DNA of 20,478 nt, from the UHGV virus genome UHGV-0138524, one strand, 5' to 3'. A model generated the notes under the pieces. That model saw nothing but the letters and a program-made list of their open reading frames with translations. It did no database searches and was not told the DNA's origin. Each line of letters begins with the position of its first letter. Within the stretch, counting starts at the first letter, position 1. This DNA is from a virus. Of the stretch, positions 663 to 6,770 are shown one piece after another. Made by a program: the position numbers and the translations under genes.

Positions 663-1267
663 GCGTTCACTCTCAGGTTATCAATCAAATGGATGGCCGA
701 GGCCGGGTAATATTCACCGCCGACGACAATCTCCTCGGGGGTGTAGGGGTAAACAGTCAGCGCGTCGCCGTGATAGCATCCCGCGCCGACATACAGTTCG
801 CCGGTCGAGCTCAGACTGATAGCCAGCCCGGTCAGGTGGCGACTTGCCGGTTTGGCGTCTTCAATCAGGCGCTCAAGCTCCTGATACATTTCGTCAGTGA
901 TGCCGCTGTCGAGGACGCCAACAACGAGGCGGAATGTGCCTGGCTCCTCGTCGAGTTGCCACCACTCGCGCACCTCAATCAGAAAGCCGAGCGGCTCGAC
1001 GACCCGACGCAATGCGCTGATGGTGCCTTTGTGCTGATGGACGAAAAACGAGGACGCGCAGACGTTGCGCTTTGTCGCCTCCGGCCATTTCTCATCCCAC
1101 CTGTCGACCGACAGCGCCCACGCCAGATACGGCAGCAGCTTTACCGGGCAGGTGCGCCAGTTCCACAGGGTGCGCAGCGGTACCGGCACGCGCTGAATCT
1201 CAGAGAACGCAGCGGCGGCGGCAACCTCCAGCGGCGACGAGCCAACGGGTAATAGCCGGTCACTCAT
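659..1267 (-). CDS. I: Baseplate assembly protein (P2 gpI-like)
   Basis: 202-aa ORF starting MSDRLLPVGSSPLEVAAA..., resembling P2 gpI; sits immediately upstream of H as in P2. Confidence 0.8.
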   Translation of the reverse strand: MSDRLLPVGSSPLEVAAAAAFSEIQRVPVPLRTLWNWRTCPVKLLPYLAWALSVDRWDEKWPEATKRNVCASSFFVHQHKGTISALRRVVEPLGFLIEVREWWQLDEEPGTFRLVVGVLDSGITDEMYQELERLIEDAKPASRHLTGLAISLSSTGELYVGAGCYHGDALTVYPYTPEEIVVGGEYYPASAIHLIDNLRVNA

Positions 1268-1598
1268 CCGAGCCCCCGATAGTTATCTGGTACTCAGTAC
1301 AATTCGACGCCTGCGACTTACTCAGCACAATGTCGGCCTGCGGTGATGCCAGTTCGACACGCTGCACCCCCTCAACATGCAGCGCCGCGTAAATGGCCGA
1401 CAGACGGATATCACGCCCGAGGCGGTGCTGCGCGCTGATGTAACTCTGCAGCTTTTGTTCTGATGCCTGCCTGATGGGCTCAGACTCGGGGCCGGGGTAA
1501 ACGTAGAGCGTCGCGTCAATTTGGTACGGCACAATCTCGGCTGACTGGACGGTCAATTCCGCTTGGCTGAATGAATCCGCGACGCTGTTCCGCCGCAA
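1260..1598 (-). pseudogene. J: Baseplate protein J, C-terminal fragment only (5'-truncated)
   Basis: 112-aa ORF (...TVQSAEIVPYQIDATLYVYPGPESEP...HRLGRDIRLSAIYAALHVEGVQRVEL...) resembles only the C-terminal third of P2 gpJ; upstream sequence switches to portal-like coding on the other strand. Confidence 0.65.
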
Positions 1599-2040
1599 GT
1601 ATTATCAGAACGGCGCGCACGCAGGCTACATCATGTATGTGACTGACCCGGCGCAGAGCGCGACCGACGTCGAATCGCTGCGCGAGGCGATGCGCAACTC
1701 AAAAGGGCTCGGCAACTTTAAGAACCTGTTTTTCTACGCTCCCGGCGGAAAACCGGACGGCATCAAAATCGTGCCACTGAGCGAGGTCGCCACAAAGGAT
1801 GACTTTTTCAACATCAAGAAGGCCAGTGCCGCCGATCTGATGGACGCGCACCGCGTACCGTTCCAGCTCATGGGCGGCAAGCCCGAGAATATCGGTTCAC
1901 TCGGTGATGTTGAGAAGGTGGCAAAGGTATTTGTGCGCAACGAGCTGTCGCCGCTACAGGACAGGTTCAGGGAGGTAAATGACTGGCTCGGCATGGAGGT
2001 CATCAGATTCAAAGAGTACACCCTCGACAACCCAGAATAA
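1594..2040 (+). pseudogene. Q: Portal protein (P2 gpQ-like), C-terminal fragment only
   Basis: Translation ...FRRKYYQNGAHAGYIMYVTDPAQSATDVESLREAMRNSKGLGNFKNLFFYAPGGKPDGIKIVPL...HRVPFQLMGGKPENIGSLGDVEKVAKVFVRNELSPLQDRF... resembles the C-terminus of P2-family portal proteins; the frame is open only from 1507, so the N-terminal two-thirds are absent. Confidence 0.6.
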
Positions 2041-2117: not shown

Positions 2118-3122
2118 ATGGGCGCGGAGATTAATATTTTGGAAACTGATTTTAAAATAACCCTCGAAGGTTTCGCTACTGAGCAAGAAGCAAATAATAT
2201 CGGTAATTTCACACTAGAAGCTATCCGAGCTTTAACAAAAAATCTCAATCTTGATATCTCCAAATTAAAATGCGTGATTGTTTCCTATAACTTCAGTGAA
2301 GCTCTTCAAAAGGTAACATCCTCTTACCAACACAAATCCCCTAGTTCATTTACCAATAGCAAACAGGGCGCAGCCGTCGGGCAGTTAGTAACAAAAATTG
2401 GCAATGATGGGCTATGTGAAGAATATACCCTTGTGCTATCGATTGATTTTTTTGTTGAGCTTTTCAATGATGGTAGCTTCTTAAAACTGAAAGAAGAAGG
2501 ATACCTCGCAGTCATCCATCGCATTCACCATGAATTAGTGCACGTACATGAAAAAAACTTACTAACATGCTTAGCCCAAAACTTTACAGTCAACGAGTAT
2601 GGTAGCGCGCTTCTTATCTCAGCCACGCGTGCATGGTCTGAATATCTCGCTAATTACATGTCTTCGGGGTCTGCCCCTCAAGAAACTATCGATTTATTTT
2701 TAGAGAATCTTGACACTGTTGTAAATGAAGTATCTGACGAGATTGAAAAACTCATCTGGGGTTATAAGTACGGTAATATTTCTCTGAATGACATGTATCT
2801 TGAAGTAAAAAAACGTATCAGGCTAATCATCAACTCTTATGCTTATGCGATGGGTTATGTCCATTCTCTAAACATCAATATTAAAGAATACGATCCAAAG
2901 CTATCCCTTACACTATCCAACTCAAAGATAAGATATCAATTATCAGAATTAGGCATTGCTTTTCAGAATCTTTATGGGAAGTTTAATGACCAGCACATTA
3001 CAGGTTTTGGTGATTTTCGGGAGATAACAATAATCATTGATGAAATATTCAAGCAGTTTGGGCTTGTTTTAGAGTGTCCCGATTGGTCTGGCGACGGTGA
3101 ACTCTACATACATGTAAATTAG
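2118..3122 (+). CDS. Hypothetical 334-aa protein with an HExxH (zincin-like) motif; AT-rich accessory gene between the portal remnant and cos
   Basis: Long ORF in clearly AT-rich DNA compared with its neighbours; motif IHRIHHELVHVHE (HELVH) at about 2524-2550; no phage core gene recognised. Confidence 0.6.
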   Translation: MGAEINILETDFKITLEGFATEQEANNIGNFTLEAIRALTKNLNLDISKLKCVIVSYNFSEALQKVTSSYQHKSPSSFTNSKQGAAVGQLVTKIGNDGLCEEYTLVLSIDFFVELFNDGSFLKLKEEGYLAVIHRIHHELVHVHEKNLLTCLAQNFTVNEYGSALLISATRAWSEYLANYMSSGSAPQETIDLFLENLDTVVNEVSDEIEKLIWGYKYGNISLNDMYLEVKKRIRLIINSYAYAMGYVHSLNINIKEYDPKLSLTLSNSKIRYQLSELGIAFQNLYGKFNDQHITGFGDFREITIIIDEIFKQFGLVLECPDWSGDGELYIHVN

Positions 3123-3341
3123 TTTAATCATAGTAGAAACATAATTAGCAGTTTGAATCCTGCCACTCCTGTAAAGCCGCTGCTCCTGGTGGCTTTTCCA
3201 TGCACACCACCATCACGCATCAGATGCGTCTCACGCGCACGAACACACTCGACCACCAACGAACCAGCAGCGACCACGACAGCGCCATCACGACGCGCTC
3301 AGAGGATAATTTTTATTATTACGCATCACTGCTGGCGCGCA

Positions 3342-3360
3342 ATGCTTTCCCCGCCACGCC
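3342..3360. other. cos cohesive-end sequence (186/P2 type)
   Basis: ATGCTTTCCCCGCCACGCC; reverse complement GGCGTGGCGGGGAAAGCAT equals the 19-nt cohesive end of coliphage 186 as I recall it and differs at two positions from P2 GGCGAGGCGGGGAAAGCAC. Confidence 0.6.
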
Positions 3361-3520
3361 TGCCCGCTTTATGGGGCGGTTTTAATGCAGTTGCATGACA
3401 ACTCTGGATCCGCGCTAGCTCTGGCGGCGCACGGACAGAACGGGCAAGACTGACGCATGCAAAACCATGCACCTAATGCATGCACGACTAAAAAACGGGA
3501 AATTCGCGGAAAAATGGCAT

Positions 3521-3550
3521 AAAAAAACCGGCATTCAGGGTGCCGGTTTT
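3521..3550. terminator. Bidirectional rho-independent terminator at the end of the SOS operon
   Basis: A7 (3521-3527), stem CCGGCA (3528-3533) / TGCCGG (3541-3546), T4 (3547-3550); on the minus strand the hairpin is followed by U7. Confidence 0.6.
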
Positions 3551-3568
3551 AGTCTGGTTTTGTCGCGA

Positions 3569-3670
3569 TTAATGGCCGCGCAATGCGCCAATAACACTGT
3601 TGAGGCACATGCTGGCAACAATCATCAGAAAAATCGTCGTCCACGGATTTTCATAAACGATAGATAACAT
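3569..3670 (-). CDS. Candidate 33-aa hydrophobic (single transmembrane-like) peptide
   Basis: Hand translation MLSIVYENPWTTIFLMIVASMCLNSVIGALRGH; AAGAGGAA Shine-Dalgarno-like sequence upstream of the ATG; ends just before the terminator; absent from the ORF track, which lists nothing under 60 aa. Confidence 0.3.
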   Translation of the reverse strand: MLSIVYENPWTTIFLMIVASMCLNSVIGALRGH

Positions 3671-3686
3671 ATTTATATAGTTCCTC

Positions 3687-3992
3687 TTATTTGCGCATTC
3701 TGATGTGATTTAACAGGTGTTTGATAACGACTGATAGCTCATCTTTACCGGCCTGCTCGACCATTTTTGCGGTGTAGCTTTCCACCTCGCGAGAGCTCAG
3801 GTCGTTATTTAAAGCCATTAAAGTCAGATTCTTTGCCCAATCGGCAAACGGGTCATTTTTCGATGAAAGGGGATTTTGCATGTACAAAAACCTCGAATTA
3901 TTTAACCAGCAGACGGTTGAAGTATTTGCGACGCTATGACCGGCTAACGCCTCGCGTAGCTCGTTGTTCAACCCCGCCAGCACTGAAAGCAA
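3687..3992 (-). CDS. Hypothetical 101-aa protein in the SOS operon (TTG start as called)
   Basis: ORF downstream of the DinI-like gene in the same orientation; no family recognised. Confidence 0.4.
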   Translation of the reverse strand: MLSVLAGLNNELREALAGHSVANTSTVCWLNNSRFLYMQNPLSSKNDPFADWAKNLTLMALNNDLSSREVESYTAKMVEQAGKDELSVVIKHLLNHIRMRK

Positions 3993-4014
3993 GTTTCAGC
4001 ACCGGCGGCGTTTG

Positions 4015-4248
4015 TTAATGCAGCCAGCTATCGTCCTCCCATACCTGCTGCATGATTTCCATTACTCGTTTTTTATCTTCGTCCAGTTTCAAACCGCTTA
4101 GTTCAACGCCATTAGCGGAGCCCTTGCGAATTCGGATAGCAGTCTTTGGGTAAATAGGTTGAAGATTGCGGTACAGTTCAGCCTCAAGTGCATCCAATGT
4201 TGCCTGACTAATTTTTTGCTCTTTATCCAACGTGATATTGATTCTCAT
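4015..4248 (-). CDS. DinI-family protein (DNA-damage-inducible protein I-like; Tum-like module)
   Basis: 77-aa MRINITLDKEQKISQATLDALEAELYRNLQ...KKRVMEIMQQVWEDDSWLH resembles E. coli DinI and the DinI-like part of 186 Tum. Confidence 0.65.
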   Translation of the reverse strand: MRINITLDKEQKISQATLDALEAELYRNLQPIYPKTAIRIRKGSANGVELSGLKLDEDKKRVMEIMQQVWEDDSWLH

Positions 4249-4251
4249 AAT

Positions 4252-4434
4252 CTAATCAGCCTTATAAAAATTATCATCTTCGGTTTCGTTATTTTCGCTG
4301 TTTGCTAGGTCTGCAATGAGAGTGAGCGCGAGCTTTAAGTCTGATGGCTTGCAGTTTGCAATCAGAGATACCTCGGCAATAAATTGCACACAAGCCCACT
4401 TTTGCTGCGTTCGGCTGAAATGTTCGCCAACCAT
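4252..4434 (-). CDS. Hypothetical 60-aa protein, first gene of the SOS operon
   Basis: ATG at 4434 preceded by GGGAGGG; a LexA box lies about 20 nt upstream; stop is 3 nt before the DinI-like ATG. Confidence 0.4.
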   Translation of the reverse strand: MVGEHFSRTQQKWACVQFIAEVSLIANCKPSDLKLALTLIADLANSENNETEDDNFYKAD

Positions 4435-4453
4435 GAAATCCCTCCCACAGGGT

Positions 4454-4473
4454 TACTGTATATTTATACAGTA
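4454..4473. promoter_or_regulatory. LexA (SOS) box overlapping the promoter of the minus-strand operon
   Basis: TACTGTATATTTATACAGTA, a near-perfect match to the palindromic CTGT-N8-ACAG consensus. Confidence 0.75.
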
Positions 4474-4547
4474 GCACGTATTGGCAAAAGATGGGAAGAA
4501 AAAAAACGAATAGAGCGATTGCTGTATGTGCATGATATGGATATGAA

Positions 4548-6770
4548 TTACCCATGTATTGGTTTTGATGCTTCAGCCATCGCCGCAACACGATTAAGGA
4601 TTTTCCGAGCTTTAGCCTCATGCGATGGTGCTGCGGAAAATATTTCTCCTTTGGCCGTTCCGCGTAGCCATTTACCATCAAAACAACTTTTACCACCGGC
4701 CATCAGGTGCAGGGCTTCGCCCCGGCTGATATTAATGCCGGTTGTCAGATGTATCTCATCGATAGTTTTAGCTATAGCTGCGTTTTGCTCATCCGTTCCG
4801 TGGATGAATTTTCGCCGTGCTGCTGGCTTTTGCTTCCTGAGTCGGTTGGTCAATTCTCGTCTTTCACGCCGACTCAGTGGTTTTGTTAAATCCAGTATCG
4901 GTGGATCGCTTTCGCTTCCCGTACAGTTATTGACAGAACTCCGAGGGACGGCTTTGCCGTCCTGAAGGTCAACGGCCAAATCAACAGCACGCTTCGGAAC
5001 AATCTTCCACTGAGTGAGCCGGGTTAAAATCGGGCTTCCTGCACCTATGGAGGAATCGTAGACCCCCTTAATACATACCGTTTCCTCACCGTACTGATTA
5101 AGCTCGGTGCGCGGTTCATACAGTGTGCGCACCTGTAAATCATCGCGACGGACAAACGGCCCACCCTGAGCATTAACATAACCAGCCCAGTCACCAGCGT
5201 CGGCGGCATCATGGACGGCGGCAAACTCAACGCTCAGACCGTGCGCGGTTTCGGTATCAGCGAGGCGACGCAACTCACGGTAAACCGTCACCGGCGCACC
5301 ACCAATAAACTGAAACTGACGGATGTGCCAGCGCGCAGCCCATGCTGAAACGGCGGGGGCTGTCTCTTTCAGCAGCTCACCGCTTTCATCATCGGTTTCA
5401 CCATCGAGAGCATAACCGTCGATATTTTTTGAAATGTATTTAGCAACATAGCCGGTTGCGCTGCCTTTCTCCGGGTCAATGGACTCGGCGTGGAAACGTG
5501 CTTTTTTGGATTTATCGCTTTTCAGTTCGTGGCGGTCTTCTTTCCATGCGTATTTACGGACGATGGAGCGAACATATTCAACATCTTCCGGCAGCATGAA
5601 CATCAGCATGTGCCAGTGTGGAGTGCCGTCGTGATGGGGCTCGGCGACACGAATACCGAAAATACGGACATCTTCCCGATGTAGTTTGGCACGGATACGC
5701 GCCCAGATACCGGTTAGATAGTTTTGCGTGTCAGCCGGGCTGGCACCGCTCCATTTGCTGTTACGGTAACCGGCTTTAGTCGTGGCGTGATATTTTGACG
5801 GCGCGGTTAGAGTGTAAAACTCACCGACATAACCGAGCTCATTACAGATGTTTTCAAACCCACGAATGCGGGTCATGAGCTCACAGCGGCGAATCGCAGG
5901 GTTAGCAACTGAGCCATCATATTTTTCAATTAGGCTGATACGGTTGCCGTCTTCGTCTTCGAGATCCAGACCTTTGAGAAATTCACGAGTGCGGCGCTTT
6001 TGTTCACGCCAGTCAGTCACGCAGTTTTTACTCGCGTAAGTGTTTTTTTTCTTACTGACGTTGCCGACTGCAATTTGCAGGTGTTCGCGCCACGTAGCTG
6101 CAACACGGCGCAAACGACCGCGCCACCACCCATCGTTAAACATTTTGGCGATAGCCGGTGCGATTTCATCCGCACCGACATATTTTTTTTCAACCCGCTC
6201 CCAATGTGGTGGGATAACGTTGAATTGGAGGGAAATAAAGCCAGCACGAATATACCAGGTGTACAGCGTTTTAAGCTCGCCGAATCCGTGGTCATTAATG
6301 TTGGCAAGTTCACCACGAATGAAATTAGCAATATCAGCGGCCAACAGGTCAACATCAGCGCGCGACATGTCCGGGAGACGGTTATATTGGGCGACCATAT
6401 TAACCATGCGTGACGACAGATATTGCATTTGCTGAGTATCAAAATGACTTCCAAAAACAGCGGTTGATACCTTGCTGTTGATACCAGCGCATTCGTATTT
6501 TTTTGCGACCAGTTCAAGACGCGGCAATGCCTTTTTGCAGAAGCTGATTAAAAATGCATTGGCTCGTTGACTACCCTGATTTTGCTCCAGCACCGCAGCA
6601 GTGCGATAAACATCTAACCGCACGCAGTCGGGCTGGAGAGAAAGCACCTTTTTTGCATGCAGCAAAGCCGCGAACATACGGTCGCGGCGATGCTGTTGCT
6701 CATAAGTAAGGTATGGGCTGGAGATTGCCGACCGTGGGACGTTCCACGGATAAGCGAATTGAACAGCCAA
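4548..6770 (-). CDS. A: Replication initiation endonuclease (P2 gpA-like rolling-circle initiator)
   Basis: 740-aa ORF with HDGTPHWHMLMF (His-hydrophobic-His) and GYVAKYISKN (paired tyrosine) motifs typical of the family. Confidence 0.85.
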   Translation of the reverse strand: MAVQFAYPWNVPRSAISSPYLTYEQQHRRDRMFAALLHAKKVLSLQPDCVRLDVYRTAAVLEQNQGSQRANAFLISFCKKALPRLELVAKKYECAGINSKVSTAVFGSHFDTQQMQYLSSRMVNMVAQYNRLPDMSRADVDLLAADIANFIRGELANINDHGFGELKTLYTWYIRAGFISLQFNVIPPHWERVEKKYVGADEIAPAIAKMFNDGWWRGRLRRVAATWREHLQIAVGNVSKKKNTYASKNCVTDWREQKRRTREFLKGLDLEDEDGNRISLIEKYDGSVANPAIRRCELMTRIRGFENICNELGYVGEFYTLTAPSKYHATTKAGYRNSKWSGASPADTQNYLTGIWARIRAKLHREDVRIFGIRVAEPHHDGTPHWHMLMFMLPEDVEYVRSIVRKYAWKEDRHELKSDKSKKARFHAESIDPEKGSATGYVAKYISKNIDGYALDGETDDESGELLKETAPAVSAWAARWHIRQFQFIGGAPVTVYRELRRLADTETAHGLSVEFAAVHDAADAGDWAGYVNAQGGPFVRRDDLQVRTLYEPRTELNQYGEETVCIKGVYDSSIGAGSPILTRLTQWKIVPKRAVDLAVDLQDGKAVPRSSVNNCTGSESDPPILDLTKPLSRRERRELTNRLRKQKPAARRKFIHGTDEQNAAIAKTIDEIHLTTGINISRGEALHLMAGGKSCFDGKWLRGTAKGEIFSAAPSHEAKARKILNRVAAMAEASKPIHG

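Follow-up and report, generated by a model that had tools for sequence, protein, structure and literature searches.

The stretch of DNA analyzed here (hereafter, the window) comprises 20,478 nucleotides of the virus genome UHGV-0138524 and carries a 33-codon open reading frame (ORF) on the minus strand at positions 3569 to 3670, with an ATG at 3670 to 3668 and a TAA at 3571 to 3569. The translation of this small ORF is MLSIVYENPWTTIFLMIVASMCLNSVIGALRGH, exactly as given in a preliminary description of the locus that was made from the sequence alone and that proposed an SOS-induced small membrane protein at the end of an operon. The window is a P2-family prophage of the 186/PSP3 (Eganvirus-like) type, and its minus strand presents, in order, gpA, a tumA-like gene, a DinI/TumB gene, a strong hairpin, a gene of 64 amino acids (aa) designated orf64, the small ORF, a terminator, and the cos site.

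Upstream of the small ORF, a Shine-Dalgarno (SD)-like AAGAGGA (3688 to 3682, minus strand) overlaps the TAA of orf64 and corresponds to the ribosome-binding site posited in the preliminary description. The orf64 stop codon lies only 16 nucleotides (nt) from the small-ORF ATG, so termination-reinitiation is also possible. Downstream, the location just before the operon terminator is likewise as first described, with 18 nt separating the small-ORF stop codon from the hairpin of an intrinsic terminator (3550 to 3524, minus strand) that is a homolog of t95b as annotated in phage 186. The hairpin consists of a CCGGCA/TGCCGG core followed by seven T residues (−14.2 kcal/mol; z score, −2.8). The terminator scan reported it on the plus strand only; the minus-strand call was missed because the stem extension took in part of the T-run.

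Frame-specific conservation of the small ORF

Size alone is unremarkable, as the first 8 kb of the window hold 108 ORFs of at least 25 aa. By itself, the small ORF is no better than chance, and only the conservation of that frame across genomes exceeds chance. Homologous loci were drawn from complete Escherichia coli genomes, phage records, GTDB species representatives, IMG/VR, and contigs encoding orf64. The IMG/VR loci were found via orf64 and, independently, via a degenerate DNA pattern for the peptide motif YENPWTT, and the contigs encoding orf64 proteins came from Edwardsiella, Cronobacter, Kluyvera, Enterobacter, Lelliottia, Kosakonia, and Klebsiella. The frame was intact in 98 of the 122 locus records, some of which are duplicates. 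The intact copies, which come from P2/186-like prophages of Enterobacterales, comprise 43 different nucleotide alleles that encode 30 different peptides.

The preliminary description had named the balance of synonymous and nonsynonymous changes in related prophages as the way to check the frame, and this comparison was run on the 43 alleles. Changes in codons 2 to 33 were inferred by parsimony on a neighbor-joining tree, and the null distribution was generated by moving each change to a site with the same base. Synonymous changes accounted for 75 of 143, compared to 43.6 ± 5.3 under the null (maximum, 61; 0 of 5,000 shuffles reached 75), and codon positions 1, 2, and 3 received 45, 25, and 73 changes, respectively. 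The excess extends to codons 13 to 33, which lie outside the search motif (52 of 107 changes synonymous versus 35.7 under the null; 2 of 5,000 shuffles reached 52). The pairwise Nei-Gojobori ratio of nonsynonymous to synonymous changes (dN/dS) was 0.29 for the small ORF, 0.25 for orf64, and 0.02 for dinI, and it was 0.68 to 0.94 in the three frames of a noncoding control taken after the terminator. All five other frames across the small ORF hold stop codons. Replacements in the peptide are conservative (I/V/L/M and S/T/A), and one allele, at locus L012, switches a serine codon from TCT to AGC. The small ORF also forms an island of conservation, with 15 to 20 highly variable nucleotides between its stop codon and the terminator. 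The small ORF is a real gene under frame-specific purifying selection.

The translation signals change in step with the small ORF. In most alleles the SD is kept as AAGAGGA or AAAAGGA at a fixed spacing. In alleles where AAGG has become AATG, a new in-frame ATG abuts the orf64 stop codon (TAAAATG) and would give a 38-aa form. At locus L125, the small ORF directly follows dinI and the hairpin. Its upstream sequence there is unrelated and provides an AGAGGA at a distance of 5 nt from the ATG, and many synonymous differences separate this copy from that in the window. Phage SEN1, from which orf64 has been deleted, retains the small ORF and its SD. Retention of the SD and compensation at the start codon across contexts are what would be expected of a translated gene.

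It is unlikely that the small ORF is not a gene and represents either a chance frame in a conserved noncoding 3′ region (terminator or cos packaging) or the reverse complement of an antisense gene. Such a reading draws on the abundance of chance ORFs of this length, on the high conservation of the adjacent stretch from the terminator to cos, on the fair conservation of the region even in the frameshifted E. coli XJ55 lineage, and on the disruption of the small ORF in about 11 lineages. Annotation could be cited in its favor as well, since RefSeq/PGAP never calls the small ORF and several records annotate an antisense ORF of 66 to 90 aa instead. However, the synonymous excess and the low dN/dS are found in the sense frame only, set against the much higher values of the control frames; the variable spacer parts the small ORF from the conserved terminator; and the compensation of SD and start codon is seen in different contexts.

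The antisense ORF in question (3467 to 3667, plus strand; 66 aa in the window) has counterparts annotated as hypothetical proteins in O157:H7 (WP_001177885.1), phage Midge (CPTMidge_047), and others. In some records this frame is annotated as a protein of 89 to 90 aa. Within the overlap with the small ORF, it contains internal stop codons in 10 of 34 alleles, the PHROG matches to it lie wholly outside the small-ORF part, and it reads through the terminator hairpin. On the basis of the internal stop codons and the PHROG coverage, the antisense ORF was rejected as a real gene, and the annotated antisense ORFs are probably spurious gene calls.

Roles at the RNA level were also considered. No significant RNA structure was found over the small ORF (fold z score, −1.0), and no Rfam family reached its threshold, the best being Thr_leader at a chance-level 22.8 bits versus a gathering score of 55. 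A weak hairpin with a U-rich run at 3637 to 3660 (minus strand; codons 4 to 15 of the small ORF), picked up by the terminator scan, is probably incidental, since substitutions in other alleles break its pairs without compensation. On these three grounds, identity as a structured RNA or small RNA was rejected. Leader-peptide attenuation was rejected because only cos and the converging portal gene lie downstream.

The 186-type operon and its link to the SOS response

Downstream of the replication gene A (4548 to 6770, minus strand; PF05840) lies a p95-like promoter (4497 to 4469, minus strand), with a −35 element TTCCCA at 4497 to 4492 and a −10 element TACTGT at 4474 to 4469. A simple sigma-70 scan did not flag it, and it is considered putative on the strength of its alignment to the annotated p95 of 186. 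The LexA box CTGTATATTTATACAG (4456 to 4471) is a perfect CTGT-N8-ACAG that overlaps the −10 element. No other site in the window matches without a mismatch, and the homolog of the box in 186 is annotated as a putative LexA site. Approximately 60 nt around the box align almost base for base to the p95 promoter and LexA site of that phage. The first cistron is a tumA-like gene of 60 aa (4252 to 4434, minus strand; phrog_1993, E value of 1e-31) that aligns to PSP3 tumA; the annotation in SEN1 reads "UV induction." It is followed by a DinI-family/TumB gene of 77 aa (4015 to 4248, minus strand; PF06183, E value of 7e-24; phrog_189), which aligns to PSP3 tumA/tumB, and by a strong hairpin without a U-tract (3970 to 4012, minus strand; −29.4 kcal/mol; z score, −4.1). 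orf64 (3687 to 3881, minus strand; phrog_2454, E value of 5e-40) encodes a predicted three-helix bundle. The t95b-type terminator and the approximately 210 nt from it to cos align at >90% to the 186 sequence from the annotated t95b ("p95 transcript terminator") onward. The cohesive-end sequence GGCGTGGCGGGGAAAGCAT (3342 to 3360, minus strand) marks the right end of the phage genome, as judged from the ends of linear records: those of 186 and SEN1 stop at the alignment column just before it. We take this 19-mer to be the 186 cohesive end.

The SOS operon of 186 (p95 - tum - t95a - orf97 - t95b; Brumby et al. 1996, as annotated in NC_001317) has in common with the window a homologous LexA-site promoter, first genes of the DinI/Tum type, t95b with approximately 210 bp to cos, and a cargo slot between tum and t95b. 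Unlike in 186, Tum in the window is split into TumA and TumB, as in PSP3, and the slot holds orf64 and the 33-aa ORF in place of orf97; 186 itself lacks the small ORF. The hairpin after dinI in the window corresponds to the element that 186 carries after orf97, not to t95a of 186.

The label "SOS operon" is justified for the window because of this homology to the annotated operon of 186. No opposing gene lies between the p95 homolog and the t95b homolog in the window, and the unit that runs from the p95 homolog through tumA, dinI, the hairpin, orf64, and the small ORF to the t95b homolog is probably SOS-induced, judging from its sequence. In 186, the same hairpin element precedes t95b, where the p95 transcript is annotated to end, so that this transcript would have to cross it; by analogy, read-through of the hairpin at 3970 to 4012 is plausible.

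The SOS link is not a property of the family. Among 75 distinct upstream contexts, tum/dinI is located upstream on the same strand in 32 (∼43%), and a divergent gene of 143 aa intervenes in 11 of these. The other 43 contexts follow a retron (helix-turn-helix protein and reverse transcriptase), a Fic gene, or gpA, with no LexA box within 2.5 kb; in Edwardsiella, the module directly follows gpA. What does not vary is the place of the module at the end of rightward transcription, at a t95b-type terminator beside cos. The SOS induction put forward in the preliminary description is thus supported to the extent that the small ORF is the final gene in a unit with homology to the LexA-controlled p95-t95b operon, and it is tempered by the limited share of family contexts with the link and by the strong hairpin to be crossed. 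No convincing module-specific promoter was found upstream of orf64, in the window or in O157.

The interval between gpA and the portal gene gpQ in P2-like phages is a cos-proximal hotspot of accessory and antiviral genes (PMC9122126; PMC13586616). The small ORF shares this locus and its mosaic, modular turnover with hotspot cargo such as old, tin, retrons, PARIS, and others (Rousset et al. 2022, PMC9122126), and it is often found beside a retron, Fic, or other cargo. Unlike such cargo, it is a recurrent fixture beside the terminator in a subset of phages and has no PADLOC match. The orf64/small-ORF module was observed just downstream of a retron-like cassette (51-aa ORF, helix-turn-helix protein, and 316-aa reverse transcriptase) in O157:H7, Klebsiella phage ST147-VIM1phi7.1, and the Enterobacter cloacae complex, and beside a Fic protein in FSL SP-004 and Kosakonia (the retron and Fic contexts are loci L004, L005, L006, L007, L081, and L082).

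Approximately 11 independent disruptions of the small ORF were identified in lineages that keep orf64, from which it follows that the small ORF is dispensable. They include a nonsense mutation at W10 in Cronobacter, start codon losses in Kluyvera, Kosakonia, and Klebsiella michiganensis, frameshifts in the T-run, a strongly degenerate copy in the E. cloacae complex, and a CTG start codon combined with a 1-nt deletion in the E. coli XJ55 lineage. Finding loci through orf64 biases the comparison of losses between the two genes; when the small ORF served as the entry point, about one-third of the loci combined an intact small ORF with a degenerate or missing orf64. An obligate two-gene system was rejected, as each of the two genes occurs in intact form at loci that have lost the other or carry a degenerate copy of it; both have the behavior of accessory genes. 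Sequence distances show recombination between orf64 and the small ORF.

The predicted peptide and its candidate functions

The best 19-residue Kyte-Doolittle window of the peptide scores 2.09 (residues 12 to 30). From the single sequence, AlphaFold2 predicts helices at residues 2 to 7 and 9 to 32 with a break at N8-P9 and a predicted local distance difference test score (pLDDT) of 86.6, exceeding 90 for residues 11 to 30. The hydrophobic helix would thus span about 20 residues, following a short N-terminal turn and ending at Arg31. Residues M1, L2, Y6, W10, T11, T12, F14, L15, C22, S25, and I27 are invariant, and the conserved features include a juxtamembrane YENPWTT, Arg31, and a stripe of residues at i+4 spacing (S20-x3-N24-x3-G28-x3-G32). 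The peptide most likely inserts into the inner membrane as a single-pass, Pro-kinked helix, in agreement with the single-pass membrane composition noted in the preliminary description. Small-xxx-small stripes with a buried Asn favor helix-helix association in membranes, and the S20/N24/G28/G32 stripe suggests self-association of the peptide or binding to a membrane protein, as opposed to a generic, detergent-like mode of action.

Combining these lines of evidence, we lean slightly toward a joint reading in which the small ORF is a real gene, encodes a single-pass membrane peptide, forms the last cistron of a 186-type SOS unit, and is a dispensable accessory. DNA damage would release LexA from the p95-type promoter, and the resulting transcript would run through tumA and dinI/tumB, read through the hairpin, continue across orf64 and the small ORF, and end at the t95b-type terminator approximately 210 bp before cos. 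Ribosomes would start at the ATG at 3670 via the SD that overlaps the orf64 stop codon, or by reinitiation, and the peptide would insert into the inner membrane and associate helix to helix with itself or with a membrane protein. Of these steps, we infer translation, membrane insertion, and SOS read-through. The product may be an accessory (moron) peptide used in phage-phage competition or superinfection exclusion. A membrane-acting accessory factor of this kind is suggested by the position of orf97 and by the hotspot context; it is a speculative proposal that we regard as rather doubtful. orf97 of 186 is equivalent in position and is annotated "expression from plasmid blocks 186 infection," and by analogy exclusion is a possible function.

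Several observations weigh against this interpretation. The spacer between the SD and the ATG, at 11 to 12 nt, is long but usable. The dN/dS of the small ORF indicates only moderate constraint, and its repeated disruption implies that selection on it is often relaxed. Because of its high stability, the hairpin at 3970 to 4012 could lead to termination or processing of part of the p95 transcript. The predicted helix includes Asn, Ser, and Cys, and its hydrophobicity is only moderate. The prophage has itself undergone an internal deletion, and the small ORF may no longer serve the phage here. With regard to exclusion or defense in particular, the peptide has no NCBIfam, PHROG, or PADLOC match and no significant Pfam match, and an exhaustive phmmer search of 1.84 billion cluster representatives returned only its own family and one spurious repeat protein.

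The toxin-like role raised in the preliminary description would make the small ORF an SOS-induced type I toxin of the TisB/DinQ kind, which depolarizes the inner membrane and is checked by an antisense or trans-acting small RNA. DinQ is a 27-aa peptide with a single transmembrane segment under LexA regulation (PMC3567139). It and TisB (29 aa), both of E. coli, are very small single-helix inner-membrane peptides with LexA-linked transcription, as is predicted for the small-ORF peptide. Size, hydrophobicity, the predicted single helix, and the position downstream of a LexA box would all suit such a toxin, and the repeated loss is compatible with a costly gene. We nevertheless consider it quite improbable. 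Crude scans of positions 3100 to 4800 found no promoter-like site on either strand, including the strand opposite the small ORF; no Rfam family reached its threshold; and the antisense strand of the small ORF is not specially conserved. The small ORF is a distal cistron with an exposed SD and no structured leader to sequester it (z score, −1.0), and neither Pfam nor NCBIfam contains a toxin family that matches the peptide. In place of a generic amphipathic charge pattern, the peptide shows a specific, invariant YENPWTT motif and polar positions that are conserved, and more than half of the family contexts are without a LexA box. In contrast to the situation for DinQ and TisB, no antisense or trans RNA partner was detected for the small ORF, which also lacks a processed structured leader and a LexA promoter of its own. 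It is also a distal operon cistron carried by a phage at the cos end, and it has no sequence similarity to either toxin.

The single Pfam match of the peptide, PF19029 (DUF883_C; residues 5 to 13, below threshold), raises the alternative that it is a free-standing mimic of the DUF883 tail anchors of ElaB, YqjD, and YgaM and disturbs their insertion, oligomerization, or ribosome tethering. The peptide and these anchors share the layout V-x-E-[NKR]-P-W-[TQC], including a juxtamembrane E-x-P-W motif, followed by one helix of about 18 to 20 residues and a terminal Arg (IVYENPWTT...ALRGH in the peptide and YVRENPWTG...LLSRR in YqjD), and hhalign gives a P value of 2.6e-4 and a probability of 42% over 14 columns. 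The similarity is weak, however, and is limited to about 9 to 14 residues. The Pfam match scores 11.2 bits versus a cutoff of 27 (E value of 0.31), the family profile scores only 7 bits against YqjD, and the exhaustive phmmer search returned no DUF883 protein at an E value of ≤1e-3. Unlike the anchors, the peptide starts 8 residues before the motif and has no N-terminal DUF883 domain; the S/N/G stripe stands in place of the Gly-rich zipper, and a Gly zipper or GxxxG run is absent. This resemblance, the sole one outside the family, provides a lead and falls short of membership, and we regard such a mimic as very unlikely. Equally far-fetched is the more specific proposal that the peptide is a phage-made copy of the ENPW anchor that displaces or docks into ElaB, YqjD, and YgaM, which are host stationary-phase membrane/ribosome tethers, or borrows their insertion route, and so rewires host physiology or blocks an incoming phage. 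If true, a 33-residue ENPW-anchor effector would be of a kind not described for phages.

Caulobacter SidA, an SOS-induced membrane peptide of 29 aa, blocks division. It resembles the small-ORF peptide in size, hydrophobicity, and SOS linkage, has no homology to it, and belongs to another host and genetic context. An SOS-induced division inhibitor of this type, or a holin/antiholin-like factor in lysis timing as the preliminary description had also suggested, is highly improbable: apart from size, hydrophobicity, and an expected coexpression with prophage induction, nothing favors it, and against it stand the location at the right end near cos, in the gpA-gpQ interval that holds accessory genes in related phages (PMC9122126), the absence of a holin family match in Pfam or PHROGs, a single helix without a charged C-terminal tail, and the dispensability of the gene in many otherwise similar prophages.

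With the preferred reading, a dispensable accessory membrane peptide, the gene map of 186/P2-like prophages gains a well-supported small protein. Such prophages are common in E. coli, Salmonella, Klebsiella, and their relatives. The concept is not surprising; a class of small hydrophobic accessory proteins is established for phages, and the small ORF is an uncharacterized addition to it. The small ORF could also be tested cheaply as a candidate for a minimal factor that acts at the membrane in exclusion or in modulation of the host.

Distribution, annotation, and neighboring features

The region is present in 99 of 5,426 complete E. coli genomes. The exact window peptide is GenBank entry NUV21814.1 and occurs on 78 contigs, and several alleles occur on >900 contigs each. 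In a public collection, the family forms three clusters at 90% identity with 92 member sequences, all described as hypothetical or uncharacterized. Annotated homologs include YP_009882563.1, the N-terminally extended SEN1_42 (55 aa), and a called gene of 33 aa in a Lelliottia genome; a homology search with a tandem query of two alleles returned only frameshifted or extended variants. The earlier statement that the peptide is unlisted thus holds for RefSeq/PGAP and most phage records and does not hold for GenBank, where it is a hypothetical protein. RefSeq omits the small ORF and sometimes places a probably spurious antisense ORF over it. A full-text literature search for YENPWTT retrieved no paper, and the supplements of ribosome profiling (RIBOseq) studies of O157:H7 Sakai contain neither the peptide nor its DNA.

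orf64 was considered as a functional clue to the small ORF and led nowhere. Its 54 homologs are all "hypothetical" and all from Enterobacterales. The AlphaFold2 model has three helices with a pLDDT of 69, Foldseek gave no match below an E value of 2, no relative in the PDB was found by sequence, and PADLOC gave only a match to PtuB with an E value of 0.033. Another family of small genes, of approximately 70 aa, alternates with the orf64/small-ORF module in the same slot (SEN1, locus L069, positions 895 to 1100; also loci L013 and L059). Its proteins start with MH(R/H)(L/V)P and carry a conserved NENL(T/S)P(A/E)ELVGC motif.

The boundary upstream of orf64 is formed by a junction element of approximately 70 nt (3940 to 4012, minus strand), in which the −29.4 kcal/mol hairpin is followed by GGTTGAACAACGAGC..GCGAGGCGTTAGCC. 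The homology break between the tum module and the orf64 module is located at approximately 3938 to 3944. The element recurs at module boundaries within the cargo slot at the right end: it lies after dinI in the window and after orf97 in 186 (locus L068, approximately 2846 to 2915), and it is present twice in SEN1 (locus L069, 700 to 770 and 1110 to 1180), where the two copies flank an inserted ORF. It may be a recombination joint, an RNA-stabilizing element, or a partial terminator. Beside it, at 3880 to 3939 (plus strand), the window retains a 20-codon remnant of the divergent 143-aa gene, which flanks the module intact in other phages. The intact gene is present in O157, Midge, FSL SP-004, Klebsiella, and other loci; it is divergent from orf64, and the two start codons overlap as CATG.

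The internal deletion of the prophage is visible where the C-terminal part of a Baseplate_J gene (1260 to 1598, minus strand) abuts a C-terminal fragment of the portal gene (1633 to 2040, plus strand), with a junction near 1555. The deletion removes roughly the whole head region and part of the tail region. The junction was found in none of the 5,426 complete E. coli genomes, in which the two halves sit apart. An ORF of 61 aa (3200 to 3385, plus strand; RefSeq E. coli WP_000557532.1) would be cut in the linear phage genome because it spans cos, and its coding status is doubtful. Between the portal stop codon and cos, on the gpQ side of the hotspot, lies an ORF of 334 aa (2118 to 3122, plus strand). 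This ORF has no Pfam, NCBIfam, or PADLOC match and matches phrog_11743, a family of unknown function. Its GC content is 0.37 to 0.39, compared to 0.52 to 0.62 in the flanks, and in strain TW10598 it is split into two ORFs.

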